The notes: generated by a model not told the origin, from the sequence alone. A DNA stretch of 32,000 nt from Nitrosomonas europaea (GCF_900167395.1 NZ_FUWK01000029.1:1-32000); one strand, 5' to 3'. Counted from the first letter of the stretch, positions 12,629 through 22,235 are shown. Made by a program: numbers and translations.

Positions 12629-13819
12629 ATGTCGTTACAGTCCTGGGCCTGGATTCACAAATGGAGCAGTATTGTTTGCACCTTGTTCATGTTGCTGTTG
12701 TGTCTGACGGGTCTGCCGCTGATTTTTCATGAAGAAATCGAGCATCTTAGCGGGGTGGTGGAGGCACCCCCCATGCCCAAAGGCACGCCGGATGCCAGTA
12801 TGGATCGTATCGCACAGGTGGTGCTCGCACGCCGTCCTGGCGAAGTCATCCGCTTCATGTTCTGGGATCAGGAGGAGCATCCGGATCTGACCTATGTATC
12901 GATGGCCAGTCGGGTCGATGCCCCGCCGGAGGAAAGTAATTCAGTGGTGATCGATTCCCGTACTGCCAAAGTGCTGGACGAACCCAAGACCAATGAAGGC
13001 TTCATGTATGTGATGCTCAGGCTGCATGTAGACATGTTTGCCGATCTGCCCGGCACACTGTTTCTGGGTTTCATGGGCTTGCTGATGGTGGTGGCCATCG
13101 TATCGGGCGTCGTGCTGTACTATCCATTCATGCAGCGGCTGAAGTTCGGCGTGCTGCGCATGCAGCGCAGTGCACGAATCAAATGGCTGGATATACATAA
13201 TCTGCTGGGTATCGTGACCGTGGTCTGGCTGACAGTAGTGGGTCTGACCGGCTCCATCAACACGCTGGACCGCATTATCCTGAGCCTGTGGCAAATGGAC
13301 CAGATGGCTGAAATGACCGCACCCTTTAAAGATCTGCCACCCGTCACACAGCCTGCACATCTTGAAGCATCGCTGCGTGCTGCTCGCGCGGCGGCGCCGG
13401 ACATGGAGGTACGACTGGTCGCTTTCCCGGGTACGATGTTTTCCAGCCCGCATCACTATACCTTTTTCCTGAGGGGCAACACGCCGATCACATCGCGGCT
13501 GCTGAAGCCGGCGCTGGTCGATGCCAGCAACGGTGAGCTGACCGATTCACGCGATATGCCCTGGTATGTGAAGACATTGTTTTTGTCACAACCATTGCAC
13601 TTTGGTGACTACGGCGGCCTGCCGCTGAAAATTCTGTGGGCAGTGCTCGACCTCATCGCCATCGTCGTGTTGGCTAGTGGCCTGTATCTCTGGTTGCGTA
13701 AACCCAAGACGACGGCAGCATCGGTTTCCAAAGCGGACGATGCTGTACTGCCTCTCGATGACGACCATACAGCACCGAACAACGCGATGGTCTATATCAA
13801 TGAGAATAAGGATAGATGA
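12629..13819 (+). CDS. PepSY-associated TM-helix protein (PiuB-like, putative periplasmic ferric-siderophore reductase component)
   Basis: AAGGAG Shine-Dalgarno. The N-terminus IHKWSSIVCTLFMLLLCLTGLPLIFHEEI is the typical PepSY_TM start, there are four predicted TM segments, and the position after a TonB receptor is conserved. Confidence 0.8.
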   Translation: MSLQSWAWIHKWSSIVCTLFMLLLCLTGLPLIFHEEIEHLSGVVEAPPMPKGTPDASMDRIAQVVLARRPGEVIRFMFWDQEEHPDLTYVSMASRVDAPPEESNSVVIDSRTAKVLDEPKTNEGFMYVMLRLHVDMFADLPGTLFLGFMGLLMVVAIVSGVVLYYPFMQRLKFGVLRMQRSARIKWLDIHNLLGIVTVVWLTVVGLTGSINTLDRIILSLWQMDQMAEMTAPFKDLPPVTQPAHLEASLRAARAAAPDMEVRLVAFPGTMFSSPHHYTFFLRGNTPITSRLLKPALVDASNGELTDSRDMPWYVKTLFLSQPLHFGDYGGLPLKILWAVLDLIAIVVLASGLYLWLRKPKTTAASVSKADDAVLPLDDDHTAPNNAMVYINENKDR

Positions 13820-13820
13820 C

Positions 13821-14030
13821 ATGACGAATCGGCTGGAATCGCGCACGATGTATACAAAGCACCGACAATCGGTTCGAGAAGTGTTTTTCATACCGACGCT
13901 ATTAAGCGTGGCAGTCCTGATCGGCCTGGTTTCCGCCCTCATCGGTGACGGTATCTGGGACGTAGTATCGTGGCTGACCATTCTGGCACCTGTTGTGGTG
14001 GTGATCCTGGCCTGGTGGCGTCGGGGCTAA
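13821..14030 (+). CDS. Small two-TM membrane protein coupled to the PepSY gene
   Basis: The ATG lies 1 nt after the PepSY stop (TGAcATG). Two hydrophobic helices are present (VFFIPTLLSVAVLIGLVSALIG, VSWLTILAPVVVVILAWW). The same junction and N-terminus are preserved in the relic at 15597-15650. Confidence 0.6.
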   Translation: MTNRLESRTMYTKHRQSVREVFFIPTLLSVAVLIGLVSALIGDGIWDVVSWLTILAPVVVVILAWWRRG

Positions 14031-14245
14031 GGAATCTCTGATCAAATCCCACAGGGCTGCACACTGTGTTTTGCGGATGGAATACAAGGCGAGTGAGGCA
14101 ATGAATGGTTTTGGCCCCTTCACAACGAGCTCAACGCTACAGTCCAGTGCCCCACAAAGGGTTGTGACAAAATCATGTGCTCGCTATGTCGTGCTCCTTG
14201 CGACCATCATGATTTTGCCTGCAATGCGGCTCATGGAGGGTTTTA

Positions 14246-14546
14246 TCAGACGTTCCTTAGCAATTCTTGCAGTACTTCTTCTGTCATACCGGCTTCCTGC
14301 GCCTTGGCGCCGACACGATCGCTGAAGCGCTGAAACTCAGCCACGTTTAGATTGACCAGTCGTTCGTATTCGTCCATCGACATCATCACTGCCACGTCCC
14401 GTTTCTGGCGCTGGATGATGACAGGCTCGCGCCGGGAATTTATCCTGAAAATCGGGGTAATGCGATCGAATCATTTCCAGCAATGACTGGAGAATAATCC
14501 GAGCGATATGGCTCGTACCTCGCCGCATCCTGTCGCGCTTGACCAT
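14246..14546 (-). pseudogene. Phd/YefM-family antitoxin, frameshifted and lacking an intact partner toxin
   Basis: One frame (14246-14470, no start codon) encodes EPVIIQRQKRDVAVMMSMDEYERLVNLN...MTEEVLQELLRNV, the YefM-like core. Another frame, from the ATG at 14546, encodes an N-terminus ...SHIARIILQSLLEMIRS that resembles the antitoxin first helix. The frames must switch between about 14426 and 14470. Confidence 0.5.
14421..14499. repeat. Left copy of a ~78 bp direct repeat (partner at 15279-15355)
   Basis: The shared core is GAAATTTATCCTGAAAATCGGGGTAATG(C)GATCGAATCATTTCC(A/G)GCAATG(A/G)CTGGAGAATAATC, with a few substitutions and one 1 nt indel by eye. Confidence 0.85.
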
Positions 14547-14548
14547 CC

Positions 14549-14591
14549 TTGATCGATAGATGTATCGTAATACTATATTGAGATCGATAGA
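14549..14591 (+). promoter_or_regulatory. Probable vapBC promoter with a 10 bp direct-repeat operator
   Basis: TTGATC (14549-14554), a 16 nt spacer, then TACTAT (14571-14576). GATCGATAGA occurs twice (14551-14560 and 14582-14591), overlapping the -35 and the leader, as expected for antitoxin autoregulation. Confidence 0.45.
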
Positions 14592-14600
14592 GGCTTGGCT

Positions 14601-14807
14601 ATGACAGCGGTTACCGTTTCACCGAAGTACCAGATTGTAATCCCGAAAGAAATTCGCGAATCAATGGGTATTGTGTCGGGGCAGAAAATCCAGGTTATGT
14701 CCTATCAGGGGCGAATTGAATTGATTCCCCTCAAACCCATGAAGGAGATGAGAGGTTTTCTCAAGGGTATTGATACTACCGTTACCAGAGACGAAGATCG
14801 GGTATGA
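14601..14807 (+). CDS. vapB: AbrB/SpoVT-fold type II antitoxin (VapB-like)
   Basis: VTVSPKYQIVIPKEIRESMGIVSGQKIQV is the looped-hinge-helix motif. AGAGG Shine-Dalgarno lies 7 nt before the ATG at 14601. The stop is 3 nt before the PIN toxin gene. Confidence 0.85.
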   Translation: MTAVTVSPKYQIVIPKEIRESMGIVSGQKIQVMSYQGRIELIPLKPMKEMRGFLKGIDTTVTRDEDRV

Positions 14808-14810
14808 GGT

Positions 14811-15191
14811 ATGAATGTAGTTGATTCTTCCGCCTGGTTGTCCTATTTCGCAGGTGACGCAAATGCCCCGGTATTTACAGGGCCTGTTGAGCAAATCTCG
14901 CAGTTGCTGGTGCCAAGCATCACCATAACGGAAGTTTTCAAAAACGTGTTACACCAACGTGGCGAGGAGGCCGCTTTGGTTGTGGTGGCTCATATGGAGC
15001 AAGGGCGAGTGGTGCCGCTGGATTCTGAGCTGGCAATGGACGCTGCAAAATTTGGCGTTCTGTATAAGTTGCCATTAGCGGACAGCATCATATTTGCCAC
15101 TGCGCATAAATACGGTGCCACGCTTTGGACTCAGGATAATGACTTTGAAGGTTTGTTAAACGTCAAGTATGTACCGAAGAGCGGTATATAA
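14811..15191 (+). CDS. vapC: PIN-domain type II toxin (VapC)
   Basis: The acidic PIN residues are in place: MNVVDSSAW (D5), ITITEVF, LADSIIFATAHKYGATLWTQDNDF. Confidence 0.88.
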   Translation: MNVVDSSAWLSYFAGDANAPVFTGPVEQISQLLVPSITITEVFKNVLHQRGEEAALVVVAHMEQGRVVPLDSELAMDAAKFGVLYKLPLADSIIFATAHKYGATLWTQDNDFEGLLNVKYVPKSGI

Positions 15192-15278
15192 CGATTGGGG
15201 CCAGATCAGTAGGATGCGGTGGGGTACGCGCATCGTTCGAGAAATCCGTTGAAGAATGGCCTTTTCCAGTTTTCACGG

Positions 15279-15355
15279 ATAGGTCGCGCAGGAAATTTAT
15301 CCTGAAAATCGGGGTAATGGATCGAATCATTTCCGGCAATGGCTGGAGAATAATC
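15279..15355. repeat. Right copy of the ~78 bp direct repeat (partner at 14421-14499)
   Basis: See the left copy. This copy abuts the PepSY gene relic directly. Confidence 0.85.
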
Positions 15356-15374
15356 ACTGTTTCTAGCGCAATGA

Positions 15375-15663
15375 CTGCATTCTGGCGATTATGGCGGGCT
15401 GCCGCTGAAAATCCTGTGGGCAGTGCTCGACCTCATCGCCATCGTTGTGTTGGTCAGCGGCCTGTATCTCTGGTTGCGCAAACCCAAGACGATAACAGCA
15501 TCGGCTTCCAACGCGGAAGAGGCTGTACTACCTCTCGACGACGACCATACAGCACCGAACAATACGATGGTCTATATCAATGAAAACAAGGATAGATGAC
15601 ATGACAAATCGGCTGGAATCGCGCACGGTACATGCAAAGCACCGGTAATCGGTTCGAGAAGTG
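15375..15663 (+). pseudogene. Relic of a second PepSY-TM gene 3' end plus the first 15 codons of its small-membrane-protein partner (paralogue of 13590-13870)
   Basis: It encodes ...GDYGGLPLKILWAVLDLIAIVVLVSGLYLWLRKPKT...LPLDDDHTAPNNTMVYINENKDR*, then TGAcATG and MTNRLESRTVHAKHR followed by TAA where the intact copy has CAA. Similarity to 13590-13870 starts and stops abruptly. Confidence 0.85.
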
Positions 15664-16064
15664 GACACTATTCCCCGCCCTCGCGAGGAGGCTGCAGGCC
15701 GACGTGGCGATCCAGCAGCACTGAATGTTGTTCTGGATTGCTTCATCCTTGCAGGATTTGCAAAGAGGAGATTTATCTCACTTGTGCCATAATCACCACC
15801 GTTTTCGTGAGGTCGCAAGCCGAAGGCTAAACAAGTAATCCATGAAATACAGGTTCTTTCCGACGCTTAAACAGTAGTACTTGCGCTTTATTCTCTTCTG
15901 TATTTAGTTAAGCAGTTTTTAGGCTGATTGCGCTGTTGTCTTATTTGTCAGCGGAAATTGTTTTGTTGGGTGAAATTTTCATTGAAATACATGATGATAA
16001 TTAACTTATTTCAGAGTTATACGACATTACAAACAGGATTATTGGACAAAATGTCTTATATATT

Positions 16065-16077
16065 GCGTTGGGCATCT
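16065..16077 (+). repeat. GCGTTGGGCATCT: integron-type core (GTTGGGC) marking the proximal boundary of the cassette array; identical 13-mer at 18656-18668
   Basis: The 13 nt match is exact. GTTGGGC fits the GTTRRRY R' consensus. Unlike the distal copy, this one has no recognisable GC-rich attC body upstream. Confidence 0.55.
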
Positions 16078-16108
16078 CGTGGGGTACCGATACTACGGAG
16101 GCTAAGGA

Positions 16109-16516
16109 ATGGATGAGATCATCAAACAAAGTCCTGTTTTGTGGGTTCTAAGCGCCGTAGTTACTGGCTTCATCGCTGGCATCGCTGCGTACATTGGTTT
16201 ACTCAAGATAACGAATCAGGAGACTATTATAAAAGGGACTTATGAGCCAAAGAAGAACCTAGTGGGCCGTGTCTTGAAGAACGAAGTTCTCATCGAATGC
16301 GGAAAGCTCATTGAGCTGGCAGGGCGCATAGATGGAGCGACGATGCCGGATAAAGTGGAGGCGTATATGACACAAACACTGATCTTTCTTGAAGGACTCG
16401 ATCTTCCCAAAGTACAGCAATATCACCAGCTCAAAATGTCTTGGCCTGCTTATACGATCCAGCTATTGCTGGTGAATGACAAGCTGTCTTCGTCGCAGAA
16501 ACTGGGGCGAGCGTAG
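16109..16516 (+). CDS. Cassette ORF 1: N-terminally membrane-anchored protein of unknown function
   Basis: GGAGG/AAGGA Shine-Dalgarno region. One TM helix is present (VLWVLSAVVTGFIAGIAAYIGLL). An attC follows. I recognise no family. Confidence 0.6.
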   Translation: MDEIIKQSPVLWVLSAVVTGFIAGIAAYIGLLKITNQETIIKGTYEPKKNLVGRVLKNEVLIECGKLIELAGRIDGATMPDKVEAYMTQTLIFLEGLDLPKVQQYHQLKMSWPAYTIQLLLVNDKLSSSQKLGRA

Positions 16517-16574
16517 GGTGTCCTCGAGGGGCTGAGATCAAGTTTTTCTGCCTCTGCAGGTGGTTAATGGAAAA

Positions 16575-16646
16575 GCCCAACAGGGCGCTCAAGCGGACCG
16601 CCAATCCACTGCGCGGCTTGTCGGCCCCTTAGCTTGAGCGTTATAC
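16575..16646 (+). other. Integron attC recombination site (attC-1)
   Basis: The sequence is GCCCAACAGGGCGCTCAAGCGGACCGCC...GCGCGGCTTGTCGGCCCCTTAGCTTGAGCGTTATAC. The left arm aligns almost base for base with attC-5 (YCCYAAC-5nt-NNTCAAGCGGA). It is an imperfect palindrome. The crossover triplet is ambiguous: cTTAGCT at 16629 or GTTATAC at 16640. Confidence 0.65.
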
Positions 16647-16662
16647 CTCTACGGATTGAATC

Positions 16663-17034
16663 ATGAACGATAAATCCAAAATGAAGGTTTACTACAATTC
16701 AGCTTGCCCAGTTTGTAAAGCAGGGATAGAAGGGCAAATGGATAAGGATAGCGTCTGTGAGATTCAATGGAATGATGTTCACAAGAATAATAGCTTGGTA
16801 TCAGAGGTAGGTTCTGAGCTTGAATTTGTGCGTGAGCGTCTACATGTTGTCGATGAAAATGGCGATCTTCAAGTTGGATTTAATGCATTTCTGGCAATCT
16901 GGCGCAACTCCCCAAAGGAAACATGGAAATCAAGGCTGTTTGGTATGCCTGTCTTAAAACAAATATGCCAAGTTTTCTACAATATCTTTGCCGCAGCTCT
17001 TAATAAATGGAACAGAACAAAGAAACATTGGTAG
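16663..17034 (+). CDS. Cassette ORF 2: DCC-family thiol-disulfide oxidoreductase (DUF393)
   Basis: VYYNSACPVCKAGIE is the N-terminal CxxC of the DCC/DUF393 family. The size of 123 aa is typical. Confidence 0.7.
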   Translation: MNDKSKMKVYYNSACPVCKAGIEGQMDKDSVCEIQWNDVHKNNSLVSEVGSELEFVRERLHVVDENGDLQVGFNAFLAIWRNSPKETWKSRLFGMPVLKQICQVFYNIFAAALNKWNRTKKHW

Positions 17035-17061
17035 GGCAACGATATAACCCAGGCGTTAGCT
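17034..17061 (+). other. Vestigial or minimal attC-like element (GGGCAAC-14 nt-GTTAGCT)
   Basis: An R''-like AAC core and an R'-like GTTAGCT core lie 14 nt apart, between the ORF 2 stop and the ORF 3 start. At 28 bp it is far shorter than a functional attC. Confidence 0.3.
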
Positions 17062-17067
17062 TTCTTT

Positions 17068-17797
17068 ATGACCTACGCAGACATCACGTTCAAAGACAAA
17101 AACGCTATTAAACGCTGGCTTCAGTCACGTAGGCTTGTCGTTGCATCTCGCATTGCTGATGCGGGGGGGGGATCCCCACTGTATTCTCGATTTTGGTGCT
17201 GGAAATGGCGAGTTATGCAAACTCATTGCATTGCAATTTTGCTACGAACCAACTCCTTCCCTAATGGCCGAGGCAAAGGAAAATTTGGCCGACTTGCCAC
17301 AGATCAGTTTTTGTAGTGATCTAGAAAAAATATCTGATGGTTCAGTAGAGCTTATTTTTTGCCTTGAGGTCTTTGAACATCTTCCAGAAAAAGAAACAAA
17401 AGATGCTTTAGGACAATTCGATAGACTACTGACTGATAACGGCAATGCAGTTATCGGTGTGCCGGTAGAAATTGGGATTCCAGCCTTATACAAGGGCATT
17501 TTTCGCATGTCACGCCGTTTCAATACATTCGATGCTTCAATCAAAAATGTTTTACTCGCTGCGTTGTCTTTTCCACCAAAAGACCGGCCTGTGTCGGAAA
17601 TTACACCTGGTTTCGCCTTCCACCACGAACATATGGGGTTTGACTATCGTAAGTTACAAGCCCTCTTACATGCGCAGTTCGGGTTGCAGCAAGTTACTAC
17701 GAGTCCATTTTCAATTTTCGGGCCATGGCTAAATCCGGAGGTAAATTTCCTCATACAGAAAGCTAACCCGGCGGTCAACGCAGACGCTGCGCGATAA
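17068..17797 (+). pseudogene. Cassette ORF 3: class I SAM-dependent methyltransferase split by a +1/-1 shift at a G9 tract
   Basis: The frame from ATG 17068 (MTYADITFKDKNAIKRWLQSRRLVVASRIADAGGG) runs into G9 at 17163-17171. The next frame continues DPHCILDFGAGNGELCK (SAM motif I) ...FCLEVFEHL to the stop at 17797. With eight Gs the two parts fuse into one ORF. Confidence 0.75.
17163..17171 (+). repeat. Homopolymeric G9 tract at the frame junction of the methyltransferase
   Basis: Read directly from the sequence: GATGCGGGGGGGGGATCC. Confidence 0.95.
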
Positions 17798-17834
17798 AGC
17801 CGCGCAGTGTCGCACAATTCGCGGCCCGTTAGAC
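17761..17834 (+). other. Integron attC recombination site (attC-3)
   Basis: AGCTAACCCGGCGGTCAACGCAGACGCTGCGCG-ATAAAGC-CGCGCAGTGTCGCACAATTCGCGGCCCGTTAGAC is an imperfect palindrome with an AAC...GTT framework. R' GTTAGAC fits GTTRRRY. The methyltransferase stop codon lies inside it, as is common for cassettes. Confidence 0.75.
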
Positions 17835-17842
17835 ACCACAAT

Positions 17843-18271
17843 ATGCGTCTTTGGTCACTTCACCCCAAATATCTCGATCCTCAAGGTCTTGTCGCCTTGT
17901 GGCGTGAATCACTGCTTGCAAAAGCAGTTCTTCGCGGAGAAACCCGTGGCTACACAAATCATCCGCAACTGGAACGATTCAAAGCGCACCCTCAGCCTCA
18001 CTTCGCAATCAATTTCTATCTCGCAGCAATTCATGCAGAAGCCACGGAGCGCGGCTATACTTTTGATTCATCCAAAATCGGGCCAGTTTGTTCAGTGCAA
18101 CTCATATTAGTCAATAGCGGACAACTTTCACATGAATGGAACCACTTGCAGCACAAACTGGCTACTCGCAGCCCAATCGTGCATGCCCGTTGGAGTGATC
18201 TTGCCTCACCGATCTGCCATCCATTGTTCCATCCGCAGCCAGGGCCTGTCGCTTCATGGGAGCGAGTGTAG
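17843..18271 (+). CDS. Cassette ORF 4: pyrimidine-dimer DNA glycosylase / T4 endonuclease V-like family protein
   Basis: MRLWSLHPKYLDPQGLVALWRESLLAKAVL is the characteristic N-terminus of the bacterial Pyr_excise-like family. The ATG at 17843 lies 9 nt after the attC-3 R' core, so I prefer it to the ORF-track start at 17807, which is inside attC-3. Confidence 0.7.
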   Translation: MRLWSLHPKYLDPQGLVALWRESLLAKAVLRGETRGYTNHPQLERFKAHPQPHFAINFYLAAIHAEATERGYTFDSSKIGPVCSVQLILVNSGQLSHEWNHLQHKLATRSPIVHARWSDLASPICHPLFHPQPGPVASWERV

Positions 18272-18277
18272 GGTGGC

Positions 18278-18298
18278 GCCTAACTTTCGGCGTTAGGG
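18278..18298 (+). other. Minimal attC-like palindrome (GCCTAAC-7 nt-GTTAGGG)
   Basis: A perfect R'' consensus (RYYYAAC) and a near-consensus R' are separated by only 7 nt. CCTAAC/GTTAGG is an exact 6 bp inverted repeat. It sits between the ORF 4 stop and the ORF 5 start. Confidence 0.35.
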
Positions 18299-18301
18299 TC
18301 C

Positions 18302-18598
18302 ATGACCAAGCCTCTCGACCGTCTCATTGGCATGACACTCCTGAGCGCAGAGATCGCCTCGGGGTCCGCAGAGCTACGATTCTCTCGCTGCGACTTCTCC
18401 GCATATTCAACCTATAGTTCGTTCCCTGATTTTGGCAGCCTTGTGGGCCAAACCGTACAGTCGATCGTTGGCTCCATGGATAGACTGGTCATTCGCTTTG
18501 CTTTCGGTGAGTTTTTTATTTCGCTGCATCCAGACGACTATCGTGGTCCAGAAGCTTTCTGTGCCAGGTTTGCTGACGGGCCCTGGGTCGTTGAATAG
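18302..18598 (+). CDS. Cassette ORF 5: 98 aa protein of unknown function
   Basis: The ORF is bounded by the mini-attC and attC-5, with its ATG 4 nt after the GTTAGGG core. I recognise no family. Confidence 0.55.
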   Translation: MTKPLDRLIGMTLLSAEIASGSAELRFSRCDFSAYSTYSSFPDFGSLVGQTVQSIVGSMDRLVIRFAFGEFFISLHPDDYRGPEAFCARFADGPWVVE

Positions 18599-18604
18599 CA
18601 TGGG

Positions 18605-18664
18605 TCCTAACAATTCATTCAAGCGGATGGCGCTACGCGCAGCCGTTTAACCCCAGCGTTGGGC
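18605..18664 (+). other. Integron attC recombination site (attC-5), classical 60 bp form
   Basis: TCCTAACAATTCATTCAAGCGGATGGCGCTACGCGCAGCCGTTTAACCCCAGCGTTGGGC closely parallels the textbook aadA-type 59-base element as I remember it (GCCTAACAATTCGTTCAAGCCGA...GGCTTAACTCAAGCGTTAGAT). R' GTTGGGC is the exact complement of a GCCCAAC R''. Confidence 0.85.
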
Positions 18665-18801
18665 ATCTGAACGACCACTTTTGAAGCGACGATCTCTGCT
18701 GTACTTCCGTCAGCCGTATAGTTTGACAAAAAGACAGCGCTCTCAATTTACCCAAGGTAGCAAGGCGGATAGCGCACCTGTATGCCGCTTCTTAAATGCA
18801 A

Positions 18802-21800
18802 TCACAGATCGGGTTGTTGCAGCACCCATTCGTGCAGTGATACGTAGTCGGTTTTTCCGGTAGCGAGCAGCGGTAGCTTGTCGATGTACAGGATGCTCTT
18901 CGGTATTCCCAGTTCTCCCAGGCCATTCTGGTTGAAATAAGCAACGATTTCGCTGCGGTCCGCCGGTTGGCGGGTTGTGATCAGAACGAGCTGTTCGCCT
19001 TTTCTGGCATCGGGAATCTGAATGACAGCATGGCTGTAGTCCGGCCACAGCTGATGGATCGATTCTTCTATGGCCGGCAGTGAAATCATTTCCCCGCCTA
19101 TTTTGGCAAACCGCTTGGCGCGCCCTTTGATGAAAACGTAGCCTTCTTCGTTGATTTCAACGATGTCGCCGGTATCATGCCAGCCCTCGACAGGGGGTAT
19201 GACCATCCCGGGGTTGGCTGCCAGATAGTAGCCCAGCATCACATTCGGGCCGGATACCAGTAGTTTGCCCCCTTGCGTGATTCCCGGAACAGGTTCCAGT
19301 TTGCTGGAAATGCCGGGTAGCAGGCGGCCGACTGATCCGGGATGGTTGTGCATGGGGGTGTTCAAACTGAGGATCGGAGCAGTTTCAGTTGTGCCATAGC
19401 CTTCGAAGATACGCACACCAAAATTCTCCGACCACAGTCTGCGTGTGCTTTCCCGCAATTTTTCGGCGCCGGCAAATGCGTAACGAACGCTGTAAAAATC
19501 GTAGGCGTTGGCATGGCGCGCATAACCGGCGAGGAAAGTATCAGTACCGAACAGCAGGTTGCATTGGTGTCGTAGATCAGCTCGGGAATGACGCGGTAAT
19601 GCAGAGGAGACGGGTACAGAAAGACCCGCATACCGGACAGTACCGGCAGCAGCATGCCGCCTGTCAATCCAAAGGAATGGAAGAGGGGCAGTGCATTGAA
19701 TACCAGGTCAGTCGGGCCGAAATCGATCCGGGCGGATACCTGGAAACGATTGGCCTGCAGGTTGGTATGGCTGAGCACCACGCCTTTGGGTACGTCTTCC
19801 GATCCGGAAGTGAACAGGACGACTGCCGGTGCATCCGGATTACGCCGGGAATGGGTATAGCGATAACTGATTCCCGGCAGCAGGCTTGCTACCAGCCCTG
19901 CCAGTTTGTGCCACCAGTGCACCTGATGTTTCAGATCTTCCAGATAGATCAGTGTGATCTGCTGTGCTTTCAGACTGTCGGCCAGTCCGGTCAGTTTGGC
20001 GGCTTCGATGAATCTGCGTGCAGTGATGATGGTCCGGATCTGTGCTACCTGGCAGGCTGTCATGAGATTTCTGGGGCTGACCGAAAAATTTAGGAGGGCA
20101 GGTACACGTCCGAAAGCCTGCAAGGCAAAAAAACTGATCACGCTGCTCACCATGTTGGGCAGCATGATTCCCACGTTTTCCTGCGTGTGGGTATAGCGGC
20201 GCAGAACAATACCCAGGATGAAGCTGCGTGTGATCAGTTGAGAATAGTTCAATGGGTTGCGTTCGACATCTTCCGCGATGACGTGCTTTCTGCCGTGCGT
20301 GGCCGCAGCATCGAGCAGTGACTGAAACAGAGTTTGCCGCAGGACATTGCTCTGAAAAATCGTTGTGGTCATGATGTCGTACAGTTTCAGGCCGGCAGCG
20401 CGGCGACGGCGTTTGCCACGGATCGAATCCGGCAGATCGAAGCTTTCCGGCGGCATGACGGTTACGGTGATCCGCGGGAACCAGTGTATCCTCACCTTCC
20501 CTTTCAGTCTGGAGAAGAGCGTGTATTGCGGGCCTGAAAGGCTTACCGGCAACAGTTTTGCCCCGGCCTTATCCGCGATCATGGCCGGGCCTTCGTAGAT
20601 TTTCATGAGTGACCCGGTCAATGTCAGCCGGCCTTCAGGGAAAATCACCACCCTGTCACCGTTTCTGACGCGTTCGATCAGCAGACGGGTGGACAAAGGA
20701 TTGGTCGGGTCAAGCGCAATGGTGTCCGCCAGAAACAGGAAGGGCCGTACCCACCATTTGCGGGCAATACTGGTGTTGATGGCGAAGCACAGGCGTTCGG
20801 GAAAGCATACGCTCAGCAGTGTGGCATCCAGGAACGACAGGTGATTGGCGACGATCAGCACTTTTTCTCCTGCCTGCCGATAATGTTCCAGCCCTCTGAT
20901 TTTCAGGCGATAGAACGTATGGAATCCCCACTGCAGAATGGATCTGGCCAGTTCATACGGCAACAGTCCCGCGATATAAACCGCAACCAGGCCATTTAAC
21001 AGAGCGAGGGTGAGAAAGACTTCAGAAACAGTGAAATCCAATGCCAGCATTACGCTGATACCCGCTGCGGAAACCACCATGAACAGGGCATTCATAATGT
21101 TGTTGGCGGCAATGGCGCGCGAACGGTGGGAGGGTTTCGTATAGTTTTGCACGATGGCATAGAGCGGCACGATGTAGAGGCCGCCGCAGATCGAGATGGC
21201 CAGCAGATCCAGCAAAATGCGCCAGTGGGCGAATGATTCCAGGAAATTCAGCACGCCGATGAGTGTTCCATTCGCTGCAGGTGTGAATGATGTACTGGCA
21301 AAATACAGATCGATGGTGAAGATCGTCATGCCCAGTACGCCTAAAGGAACATAAGTTGCGGCCACTTCACCTTTGAGCAGTTTGTCGCACAGCAGCGCAC
21401 CGATACCGATTCCCACCGAAAAGAGTGTCAGGAACAGCGTAACCACCTGTTCATTTCCACCAATGATTTCTTTGGCGAAGGTGGGAAATTGTGACAGAAA
21501 TGTCGCGCCAAACAGCCAGAACCACGAGACTCCGAGAATGGCGTGAAACACCGTGGTGTTCTCACGTGCCTGCCGGATGAGGGTGCGCGTTTCTTCAAGC
21601 ACATGCCAGTTGACGATCGTATCTGCTGCTGCCGGGCGGACCGGGGGAATGAACAGACTGGACAGCCAGCCGGCCAGCGCTATCCCGATCGTTATGCCGG
21701 ATACGATCGCCCCTCCCTGCTCGGCCAGAATGAGCAACCCGCCTATGATCGTCCCCAGCAGAATGGCAATGAATGTTCCGGCACTGACCAGTGCATTGCC

Positions 21801-22235
21801 GCCGATCAGCTCATCTTCACGCAACTGGTCCGGCAGGATGCTGTATTTCAATGGCCCGAAGAAAGCGGACTGGGCGCCCATCAGAAACAGAATCATCATG
21901 AGCAGTATGACGCTATCCAGATAAAACCCCGCCGCCGCGCCTCCCATCAGAATGATTTCGACGAATTTGACGTGGCGGATCAGCCGTGCCTTATCCCATT
22001 TATCCGCCAGCTGGCCGGCAGTAGCGGAAAAGATGAAAAACGGCAGGATGAAAATACCGGCCGCCAGCGTGACCATGATCTGCGGGCTCAGGCCCGCGTT
22101 GTCCATGGTGGTGTAGGTAATCAGAATGACCAGCGCATTCTTGAAAACATTGTCATTGAATGCACCCAGAAACTGGGTAACGAAAAAGGGTAAAAAGCGT
22201 CTGCTCGAAAGCAGCTTCCATTGACTTGGGTGCAT
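18802..22235 (-). pseudogene. aas: Tri-domain fusion: LplT-like MFS lysophospholipid transporter + PlsC-type acyltransferase + Aas acyl-ACP synthetase (AMP-binding), with a 1 nt frameshift near 19556-19560
   Basis: The MFS N-terminus is FLPFFVTQFLGAFNDNVFK. Acyltransferase motifs are NHLSFLD and FPEGR. AMP-binding motifs are LFTSGSEDVPKGVVLSH, then after the shift EGYGTTETAP, WHDTGD and GRAKRFAKIGGEMISL. The frame changes at AAT GCA ACC (C)TG CTG TTC GGT; restoring one C gives LLFGTDTFLAGYARHANAYDFYSVRYAFAGAEKLRESTRR. Confidence 0.85.

Follow-up and report, generated by a model that had tools for sequence, protein, structure and literature searches.

The window analysed here, a 32,000-nucleotide stretch of Nitrosomonas europaea DNA, is 100% identical to the chromosome of Nitrosomonas europaea ATCC 19718 (AL954747.1), in which the locus of interest lies at approximately 2,647.8–2,650.4 kb. 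It comprises NE2426–NE2429 together with a DCC gene that lacks annotation, and is flanked on one side by a rearranged region of toxin-antitoxin modules and PepSY fragments and on the other by the aas gene. All five of the co-oriented ORFs described in the earlier note were found (16109–16516, 16663–17034, 17068 or 17159–17797, 17843–18271 and 18302–18598), with gaps of 146, 33, 45 and 30 nt between them, and the vapBC module that it placed just outside lies at 14595–15191.

Each ORF is contained in a cassette on the plus strand that starts with the TT of a GTTRRRY core and ends with the G of the following one. Cassette 1 (16068–16640) carries ORF1 (NE2429), a predicted membrane protein of 135 aa with no Pfam family, preceded by its own SD sequence (GGAGG at 16097–16101); a simple sigma-70 scan upstream of ORF1 gave no promoter match, though such a scan is too simple to show absence. 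Cassette 2 (16641–17055) encodes a DCC1-like thiol-disulfide oxidoreductase of 123 aa (ORF2; PF04134, E 2.4e-20), cassette 4 (17829–18292) a pyrimidine-dimer DNA glycosylase of the T4 endoV type of 142 aa (ORF4, NE2427; Pyr_excise, PF03013, E 2.7e-23) and cassette 5 (18293–18658) a 98-aa protein, again with no Pfam family (ORF5, NE2426). The gene in cassette 3 (17056–17828), a SAM-dependent methyltransferase (Methyltransf_11/12, PF08241/PF08242), is damaged. Its candidate starts are the ATG codons at 17068 and 17159, the frame from the first being broken by a polyG tract at 17163–17171, and the cassette has an 18-nt deletion relative to another locus, L006; in strain CP157069.1 IS elements have inserted in it.

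Three palindromic elements in the array had been put forward as convincing attC sites, of which two hold and one does not. They were assessed with two purpose-built covariance models, R1 and R2, made from attC sites of other genomes and distinct from the model of IntegronFinder; R1 was seeded with 39 sites from loci matching a strict attC pattern that was itself derived from two sites in the window, attC 1 (16573–16648, cores spanning 16575–16646) and attC 5 (18603–18666, cores spanning 18605–18664, approximately 60 nt). Both of these sites are intact and lie on the minus (bottom) strand. AttC 1 scored 48.0 bits with R1 (E 7.5e-11) and 49.4 bits with R2 (E 3.2e-10), and attC 5 50.7 bits (E 1.4e-11) and 44.5 bits (E 5e-9), scores that are not fully independent since both models were seeded via the pattern taken from these two sites. 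They have the same orientation, are about 2 kb apart, and have no comparable match elsewhere in the 32 kb. The third element, 17761–17834, was not reported by either model at E ≤ 10.

On the top strand attC 1 consists of R'' GCCCAAC (16575–16581), L'' GCT[C]AAGCGG[A]CCG and R' GTTATAC (16640–16646), the last showing a single departure from the RRR of GTTRRRY. Standard pairs are formed at 17 of the 20 paired model positions, and the bottom strand carries the T and G bulges at T-N6-G spacing (…GGT CCGCTT G AGC…). In attC 5 the corresponding elements are R'' TCCTAAC (18605–18611), a UCS of AATTC, L'' ATT[C]AAGCGGATGGCGC and R' GTTGGGC (18658–18664), with 16/20 standard pairs and T and G in both bulge columns (…CAT CCGCTT G AAT…). 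On the bottom strand both sites can adopt the canonical attC fold, in which the R box is followed by an unpaired spacer and by an L box bearing extrahelical bases at T-N6-G spacing. Folding of the bottom strands, which had been suggested as a check, gave z = -4.07 for attC 1; the attC 5 region (18600–18669) folded without constraint is no better than shuffled sequence (z +0.29), and the element at 17761–17834 gave a z-score of -1.1.

The strict pattern matches attC 1 and attC 5 and none of 100 shuffles. In other genomes it is found at at least 119 loci, many of them multi-copy, which carry RYYYAAC and GTTRRRY at positions that the pattern leaves unspecified, and R1 identifies 473 sites arranged as arrays in the 586 kb of these loci. 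IntI homologues with 45–56% identity to IntI1 are encoded in 16 of the 119 loci among the matches listed; one IntI N-terminus checked against the PDB had VchIntIA (2A3V) as its sole match. The model structure covaries, with 91% of cells paired and compensatory changes in 10 of the 13 L-box pairs; in the reference set, as expected, about 40% of cells lack pairing between the outer R-box positions and the adjacent core.

The element at 17761–17834, also on the minus strand, looks from its sequence to be a chimeric or degraded attC. It begins with an R''-like end, AGCTAAC (17761–17767), but has no canonical L box, and its fold contains a 5x5 internal loop and has the wrong spacing. The part from 17807 to 17834 is the 3' half (L' GTGTCGCACAAT, R' GTTAGAC at 17828–17834) of an attC of which only other strains have the whole: in L006 and L129 an additional 95 nt restores a full-length site of 14.5 bits, with 12/13 L-box pairs and the T-N6-G bulges. 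A 17-nt inverted repeat pairs 17055–17071 with 17751–17767. The methyltransferase stop codon (17795–17797) does fall within this element, as had been claimed, but the element is not a validated attC.

The covariance models also pick out two short inter-ORF gaps, which from their sequence hold attC relics, on the minus strand, that have lost everything between R'' and R'. The relic of cassette 2 (17040–17063) has R'' ATATAAC (17042–17048) and R' GTTAGCT (17055–17061) separated by CCAGGC, and scores 11.7 bits with R1 and 11.1 bits with R2 (E 0.5–0.8 over 64 kb), 44 internal positions of the model being deleted in the alignment. That of cassette 4 (18276–18300), with R'' GCCTAAC (18278–18284), TTTCGGC and R' GTTAGGG (18292–18298), scores 16.3 and 17.9 bits (E 0.03 and 0.016). 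Taken singly these scores are marginal, and they are the third and fourth best matches in the window and on the correct strand. The relic of cassette 4 is kept in L128, L129 and L217, and a similar deletion product is seen in an unrelated array (L212, 1111–1141, 23 bits). Beyond the two intact sites and these two relics, the models pick out nothing in the 32 kb.

A hallmark of integron cassettes is that R'' is complementary to the beginning of the cassette it belongs to and not to the core after it; this is seen here throughout, the first bases of cassettes 1–5 matching their R'' at 7/7, 6/7, 7/7, 6/7 and 6/7 positions. The start of cassette 1, TTGGGC, is a perfect complement of its R'' GCCCAAC, the R'' of the cassette 2 relic is 6/7 complementary to the cassette start GTTATAC, and in cassette 3 the complementarity extends to 17 nt. 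The left edge of the array is not an attC, having no match to R1 or R2, but a junction of 42 nt (16028–16069, plus strand) that ends in GCG|TT (…TATATATTGCG|TT), with the crossover between G16067 and T16068. To the right, the sequence from the last crossover to the aas stop codon (18659–18801, plus strand) is probably the original right half of the insertion site; nothing equivalent lies downstream of aas in L130–L132, which come from other Nitrosomonas species.

Comparison with N. europaea-like contigs reveals three alleles of the array, which have the left junction and the distal cassettes in common and differ in the proximal cassettes. The 42-nt junction is 100% identical in the window, L128 and L221/L223 despite the different first cassettes, homology stopping at …GCGTT each time. 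In L128 three other ORFs stand in place of the segment 16070–17827, accompanied by two strong attC sites (50 and 42.8 bits), while in L221/L223/L227 the junction is followed by DUF5076, an IS, ORFs of 97 and 128 aa and an Hfx_Cass5 cassette. The breakpoints, at 16069/16070 and 17828, lie exactly at G|TT cores; cassette 4 is common to all three alleles and the right flank is identical in them. Cassette-wise variation among relatives, which had been set as a check, is present, although ATCC-19718-type genomes are invariant, with the array fixed. The other Nitrosomonas species (L130–L132) have no array at aas.

Individual cassettes also occur elsewhere. Homologues of ORF5 with 56–63% identity are found in the cassette arrays L208–L214 with attC matches on their flanks, and the cassette is colinear throughout, from its start (TTAGGnnCC-ATG) to its end (TAG-CATGGGnCCTAAC). 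In Nitrosomonas sp. PY1 the DCC gene is present alone at another locus, with 88% nucleotide identity to 16643–17034 of the window and homology beginning 3 nt past G|TT. The cassettes therefore behave as discrete units that appear in new contexts with breakpoints at G|TT, and these sequence comparisons support their mobility, although homologous recombination in their common flanks, instead of recent integrase action at this site, could have exchanged the alleles between strains.

The earlier note reported no tyrosine recombinase or relic beside the array, and this extends to the whole 32 kb. A tblastn search of the window with IntI1 and ten real IntI sequences gave no match better than E > 0.1, an HMM of IntI sequences against the six-frame translation gave a best E of 3.3, and Pfam scans of the larger ORFs at 1.6–22 kb found no Phage_integrase domain. 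There is thus no adjacent divergent intI, as a complete integron would have, within the window. N. europaea does, according to papers that cite the original study, possess an integrase, NeuIntIA (CAD86100.1; PMC9229058), reported to be active in excising and integrating cassettes (Léon & Roy 2003, cited in PMC3053210, PMC3001079 and PMC9229058). Accession numbering relative to NE2426 (CAD86338.1), rather than sequence, places it near NE2188, some 238 genes or about 0.26 Mb from the array, and it would be the obvious candidate for an integrase acting on the array in trans.

Very probably, then, the N. europaea chromosome carries at 16028–18801 a CALIN, a sedentary integron cassette array of small size that has no intI beside it. 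The reading of the locus as CALIN-like, whether orphaned or serviced in trans, is upheld by the two high-scoring attC sites, the absence of intI from the window and the polymorphism bounded by G|TT, all of which are, like the cassette homologues in other arrays, directly observed; it gains further support from the occurrence of the same attC type in arrays beside IntI genes in other genomes and from the active IntI known elsewhere in the N. europaea genome. The locus falls within the CALIN definition, which asks for two or more attC sites spaced by 4 kb or less in a cluster that lacks an integron integrase. With a constant junction, constant distal cassettes and varying proximal ones, the alleles show the polarity that insertion at an attI-like site would produce. 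The cassettes would have been inserted at an attI-like left junction, and later exchanged, by an integron integrase that cuts between G and TT and that either acted in trans or has since been lost. The array in ATCC 19718 appears to be decaying: two of its cassettes are closed by R-box-only relics, the methyltransferase gene has suffered damage, and deletion of hairpin interiors has left R-box-only scars that would fuse cassettes. At most two mobilisable units would seem to be left, ORF1 alone (left junction × attC 1) and the ORF2–ORF5 block (attC 1 × attC 5).

It is possible, though we would put it forward only tentatively, that the junction 16028–16069 is a functional stand-alone site of attI type, serviced in trans by a sole integrase, NeuIntIA, from about 0.26 Mb away. 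N. europaea would in that case run a 'split integron' with a second platform for cassette acquisition, and the three alleles would record recent captures at the left junction in environmental populations. The junction might instead be the true attI of a second complete integron that grew in cis by means of its own intI and attI, the intI being deleted later to leave an unserviced fossil, an origin that we consider rather unlikely. The joining of one 42-nt junction at a single G|TT to three first cassettes is attI-like behaviour, and such a remnant would fit with the approximately 360 nt of AT-rich non-coding DNA (15709–16069) that accompanies the array in L231 and L128, with the heavily rearranged upstream flank (a duplicated PepSY 3' end, toxin-antitoxin modules, differing flanks in L221/L231) and with the decay of attC sites and genes. 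No IntI-like fragment was detected by the sensitive searches of the 32 kb, although this is uninformative either way since 95% of CALINs have no nearby intI pseudogene (Cury et al., PMC4889954), and a lost second integrase is not needed given the active IntI in the same chromosome.

The crossover G|TT also fits the GWT consensus of attG sites (bioRxiv 10.1101/2022.09.11.507474), and insertion of a cassette at such a secondary genomic site (5'-GWT-3') by the resident integrase in trans, followed by insertions at the hybrid junction, is the route by which Loot et al. (bioRxiv 10.1101/2022.09.11.507474) propose that SALIN and small CALIN elements arise. The lack of an intI relic in the window, the small size of the array, its occurrence in the N. 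europaea lineage alone (L130–L132 lack it) and the constancy of the sequence past the last attC in all alleles, as expected of the original right half of a target, are consistent with this. It is nonetheless doubtful: reuse of one attG by at least three first cassettes, which is not shown in Loot et al., is more like a dedicated attI, and an empty-site allele (…TATATATTGCGTTGGGCATCTGAACG…) was not found. Displacement of a piece of the main N. europaea integron by about 0.26 Mb through chromosomal rearrangement (mechanism iv of Cury et al.) is improbable; the surroundings of the locus are rich in IS elements and rearrangements, and for half of CALINs the replicon encodes an IntI as well (Cury et al., PMC4889954), but a split array should leave attC or random DNA at its left edge, not a non-attC junction with variable first cassettes at G|TT. 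The alternative of a plain operon of small genes, with the palindromes as common intergenic repeats or terminators and no link to integrons, is, despite the poor folding of 18600–18669 and 17761–17834, refuted by the covariance scores, the related attC sequences in arrays beside IntI genes, the allele breakpoints at cores and the cassette-borne ORF5 homologues, the lack of any Rfam family match in the window saying nothing on attC sites.

As a CALIN, the array is a member of a class already described (Cury et al. 2016, PMC4889954; Néron et al. 2022) and no new kind of system. It shares with that class at least two co-oriented attC sites within 4 kb with no nearby intI or recognisable pseudogene, a small size (five cassettes being the reported average; PMC4889954), cargo mostly of unknown function without resistance genes, and a replicon that also encodes IntI. 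It differs in that three of its five attC sites are relics, so that a standard run would probably report two sites only, and in that its left junction, which is not an attC, stays constant across the alleles while the first cassettes vary, a feature on which the CALIN definition is silent; use of an attI-like junction repeatedly without a neighbouring integrase seems mildly new. The attC type, nTTCAAGCGGAC…CCGCTTAAC-TCnnGC-GTTRGGC of 60–77 nt with bottom-strand T-N6-G bulges, and the small co-oriented ORFs near cores are those of the sedentary arrays of Xanthomonadales and other soil and freshwater Proteobacteria (for example L017, L054 and L104). Those arrays, in contrast, are long, packing about 20 cassettes into each 8 kb, and have homogeneous attC sites, most of which score 53–74 bits against 44–51 here, and intI is present in 16 of 119 loci among the matches listed, whereas this array has five cassettes, heterogeneous and decaying attC sites and no intI. 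The NeuIntIA integron is in the same genome, as far as the papers citing it indicate, and NeuIntIA would be the natural trans-acting enzyme for the array, but it occupies a different locus (around NE2188 as opposed to NE2426–NE2429). As in the SALIN and attG insertions of Loot et al., the cassettes lie off a canonical integron platform and join the genome at G|TT, and the lone DCC gene of PY1 resembles a decayed SALIN; here, however, there are several cassettes and one junction is used repeatedly. For annotation of the N. europaea reference genome, the locus draws attention to the DCC gene, which has been left unannotated, and to several pseudogenised features. More broadly, it is a clean case with clear boundaries in which the way integrase-less arrays arise, vary and decay can be followed, and, if NeuIntIA uses the junction in trans, it would give direct support from natural populations for CALINs staying functionally linked to a distant integrase, as proposed by Cury et al. 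2016 (PMC4889954) and Loot et al. (bioRxiv 10.1101/2022.09.11.507474).

The five ORFs that the earlier note had read as a cassette array (16065-18668) all lie on one strand, separated by gaps of 146, 33, 45 and 30 nt. The predicted cargo was also borne out, Pfam assigning a DCC1-like oxidoreductase to ORF2, a class I SAM methyltransferase to cassette 3 and a T4-endoV-type pyrimidine-dimer glycosylase (Pyr_excise) to ORF4, with no Pfam family for ORF1 or ORF5. The window DCC protein is encoded on AL954747.1, the chromosome of Nitrosomonas europaea ATCC 19718, where the corresponding locus (2,639,445-2,659,816, reversed) matches the window at 100% identity throughout the region compared. Genome position is given by 2,666,479 - p for window position p, and the array lies at about 2,647.8-2,650.4 kb. 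By exact look-up ORF5 is NE2426 (CAD86338.1) and ORF1 is CAD86341.1, while vapC and the PepSY protein beside the array are CAD86343.1 and CAD86344.1. The same look-up returned no ATCC 19718 (CAD) accession for the DCC gene (16663-17034), only later WP_ and MAG accessions, and the gene seems to be unannotated in the original record. The flanks have a GC content of about 53%, which drops to 43-46% over 15.5-17.5 kb.

No Rfam family matched the window at gathering thresholds, which says nothing about attC sites; two covariance models, R1 and R2, were therefore built. A strict bottom-strand attC pattern, AACGCNNNNGYTAAN{15,45}TCCGCTTGANNNNNNNGTT, matched only 16575-16646 and 18605-18664 in the window and nothing in 100 shuffles. 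Scanned over one genome per species it found at least 119 loci, mostly in Xanthomonadales, Rhodocyclaceae, Nevskia and Methylococcaceae with some in Planctomycetes or cyanobacteria, several of them with 3-5 copies. Positions at these loci that the pattern left free read (G/C)CCTAAC upstream and GTTAGGC downstream, and 16 of the loci encode IntI homologues (45-56% identity to IntI1), one of whose N-termini, checked against the PDB, matched VchIntIA (2A3V) alone. R1 was made from 39 non-redundant sites with the structure supplied by hand (R box of 7 bp, then a spacer, then an L box made up of 3 bp, G bulge, 6 bp, T bulge and 4 bp) and found 473 sites at E<=0.01 over 586 kb of these loci, in arrays of ~20 per 8 kb. 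R2 was made from 94 more diverse matches of 17-74 bits; its alignment has the structure 91% paired, with compensatory changes in 10 of the 13 L-box pairs.

When the window was scanned on both strands with filters off, R1 and R2 gave four matches, all on the minus strand and in gaps between ORFs, and nothing else above 11 bits in the whole 32 kb. Two are intact sites: attC1 (16573-16648; R1 48.0 and R2 49.4 bits, E about 1e-10) and attC5 (18603-18666; R1 50.7 and R2 44.5 bits, E 1e-11 to 5e-9). By eye, 16575-16646 and 18605-18664 resemble textbook attC sites: RYYYAAC is followed by 5 nt of spacer and nTT[C]AAGCGG[A]…, and a complementary arm on the 3' side by 6 nt of spacer and GTTRRRY. In the model alignments the bulge columns of both sites hold T and G at N6 spacing, the geometry preferred according to Larouche & Roy (PMC3053210). 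Thus two of the three attC sites proposed from the sequence stood, at 44.5-50.7 bits and with the expected bulged bases, and the third, element 2 (17761-17834), was matched by neither model. Unconstrained MFE folding gave the canonical site at 18603-18666 a z of +0.29; the z-score is a poor test of attC sites, since the MFE structure is not the spacer-and-bulge fold of an attC.

The other two matches are weak and consist of the R box only: relic 4 (18276-18300, minus strand; R1 16.3 and R2 17.9 bits, E 0.03 and 0.016) and relic 2 (17040-17063, minus strand; R1 11.7 and R2 11.1 bits, E 0.5-0.8). In both, the alignments place the R box and delete 42-44 internal model positions, and by eye the letters, GATATAAC-CCAGGC-GTTAGCT for relic 2 and GCCTAAC-TTTCGGC-GTTAGGG for relic 4, are cores with the middle gone. 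They are read as probable deletions of the hairpin interior that would have fused adjacent cassettes. A comparable 31-nt scar of 23 bits, GCCCTAAC-AATTC-GTTCA|GGC-GTTAGGT, is seen in an unrelated array (L212, 1111-1141), where the join GTTCA|GGC marks a deletion from the L'' arm to the 3' spacer; this scar suggests that loss of the hairpin interior is a recurrent route to cassette fusion.

By eye, the ends of element 2 resemble cores and its centre holds a stem of 7 bp, but there is no L box. It is longer by 95 nt in three strains (L006, L007 and L129), and R2 traces this long form as a complete attC of 14.5 bits, with R'' GCCTATC, an L'' of ATT[C]GAGCGA[A]CACC pairing 12/13 with GGTGTCGCACAAT, and then R' GTTAGAC. 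The window element is the 3' half of the long form only, joined to AGCTAAC-CCGGC-GGTCAACGCAGAC, which resembles the 5' half of an attC belonging to the methyltransferase cassette itself. Derivation from the L006 form by a simple 95-nt deletion is one candidate, weakened by the short element of another allele (L221), which has its centre in common with the window element, and so several orders of events are possible. Whichever applies, element 2 in the window is not a canonical attC.

In a classical cassette the first bases can pair with the R'' of the element at its 3' end. This complementarity is 7/7, 6/7, 7/7, 6/7 and 6/7 for cassettes 1 to 5, and in cassette 3 it extends to 17 nt (17055-17071 with 17751-17767). 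Beyond the 7-bp core, cassette 5 has 11/15 (18292-18306 with 18597-18611), and its homologue in L212 has 13/13 with the ATG start codon included (1696-1710 with 2009-2023). ORF5 has few homologues; those of 60-63% identity are found within dense arrays of cassettes, directly preceded and followed by an attC, and their cassettes are colinear throughout with the window copy, including the 9-nt leader and the extended stem in which the ATG pairs with bases after the stop codon. A tblastn search with the eight cassette proteins matched nothing in the 119 array loci. In Nitrosomonas sp. PY1 the DCC gene, at 88% nucleotide identity, lies between a TonB receptor gene and comM, with homology beginning 3 nt past the G|TT of attC1 and no detectable attC in its surroundings. 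Some Logan calls in the 90% cluster of this gene are 289-299 aa, from a longer upstream frame at the PY1-type locus. The two array ends (16065-16077 and 18656-18668) carry the same 13-mer, GCGTTGGGCATCT; the right copy is compatible with the original right half of an insertion site, and the GTTGGGC part of the left copy fits cassette 1's own R'', the shared ATCT falling outside that account.

In the comparison of relatives that the note had proposed, the locus varies cassette by cassette. Assemblies of the ATCC 19718 type carry an identical array, and L006 and L007 are 99% identical with the same five cassettes; apparent rearrangements in L005 were discarded, the scaffold being N-gapped. A metagenome scan with the Aas C-terminus, together with exact-protein look-ups, gave two more alleles in N. 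europaea-like contigs with aas 97-98% identical. In allele 2 (L128), window 16070-17827 is swapped for ORFs of 137 aa, 173 aa (DUF2199) and 113 aa, with two attC sites that score strongly, at 50.0 and 42.8 bits. No attC separates the 113-aa ORF (L128 11462-11803, minus strand) from the cassette that follows, and the TAG stop of this ORF lies inside that cassette's GTTAGAC core. Allele 3 (L221, L222, L223 and L227) has the same 42 nt (16028-16069) followed by a DUF5076 cassette (start G|TTATAC; attC of 32.5 bits, R'' GTATAAC), an IS, ORFs of 97 and 128 aa and an Hfx_Cass5 'integron cassette protein'. The left side, …ACAAACAGGATTATTGGACAAAATGTCTTATATATTGCG|TT, is common to the three alleles, and homology breaks exactly after GCGTT. 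Also common to them, on the right, are Pyr_excise, relic 4, attC5 and aas, as well as ORF5, of which alleles 2 and 3 have lost part; here homology resumes at or just before the cassette 4 core, in L128 at the G of GTTAGAC (17828) and in L221 at 17764. Insertion at an attI would give this pattern of variable proximal and conserved distal cassettes. The predicted empty site reads ACAAACAGGATTATTGGACAAAATGTCTTATATATTGCGTTGGGCATCTGAACG. Other Nitrosomonas species (L130-L132; Aas protein 83-93% identical) have no array and no attC match downstream of aas.

The claim that no tyrosine recombinase lies nearby also held. With IntI1 as query (100% identical to the main IntI1 cluster, P0056) tblastn of the window gave a best E of 1.9, with ten real IntI from array loci 0.14, and an HMM of these ten against all six-frame stop-to-stop fragments of the window 3.3; the 120 matches listed in an IntI1 homologue search were all 74-100% identical to IntI1. 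An ORF of 319 aa on the minus strand, upstream of the array in L221, was rejected as an integrase, having no HMM match and being a low-complexity secreted protein. For the rest of the genome, PMC3053210 cites NeuIntIA as an integron integrase that is active; its accession is CAD86100.1 (PMC9229058). Judged from the numbering (CAD86338.1 being NE2426), it would lie at about NE2188, ~238 genes or roughly 0.26 Mb from the array.

The larger ORFs over ~1.6-22 kb are, by Pfam, ordinary chromosomal genes (mdoGH, ECF sigma/FecR/TonB receptor/PepSY, aas), and nrdAB is annotated downstream of aas in other N. europaea assemblies. The vapBC module reported just outside the array was found at 14595-15191. 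Its segment (14188-15252) has no flanking attC and is missing from N. europaea CP157069.1, and the toxin-antitoxin module is therefore variable. A 300-bp direct repeat of 87-89% identity (13575-13874 and 15355-15654), duplicating the PepSY_TM 3' end together with the beginning of the small ORF that follows, and a 75-bp repeat (14427-14499 and 15284-15355), duplicating the 5' end of a phd/yefM-type antitoxin gene, bracket vapBC in the order A1…B1…B2-A2, and so not as a simple tandem duplication. The antitoxin gene (14246-14546, minus strand) appears frameshifted into overlapping ORFs of 49 and 69 aa, is called at 65-71 aa (PF02604) in other assemblies, and has no evident partner toxin. aas (18802-22235, minus strand; MFS, acyltransferase and AMP-binding) is split into ORFs of 957 and 218 aa overlapping near 19362-19458 and is an intact 1144-aa ORF in L006, L128 and L221; in the reference strain, either a frameshift has made aas a pseudogene or the sequence contains an error.

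The methyltransferase is damaged. A polyG tract (17163-17171) of 9 G in the window vs 10 G in L006 breaks the frame, since ATG 17068 and the methyltransferase domain would share a frame only with 8 or 11 G; near 17238 the window lacks 18 nt coding PKAKIV of an FPKAKIV stretch in L006; and the gene carries IS insertions in another strain. With this damage and three of the five attC sites reduced to relics, the array is decaying in the window strain, and the mobilisable units look to be two at most, ORF1 and the ORF2-ORF5 block. As to origin, the fixed junction with its three different first cassettes argues, on comparison of the alleles, for an insertion site that is dedicated or was used repeatedly. 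The array may have been left by a second integrase, now lost, or may come from attG insertion in trans (Loot et al.). It could also be a split of the main integron, but a simple split is opposed by that same junction. The literature searches, which did not extend to the 2003 NeuIntIA paper, gave no description of this array. As the note had proposed, it is a CALIN, an attC cluster without integrase, in the sense of Cury et al. (PMC4889954), and because that class is already known its importance is modest.
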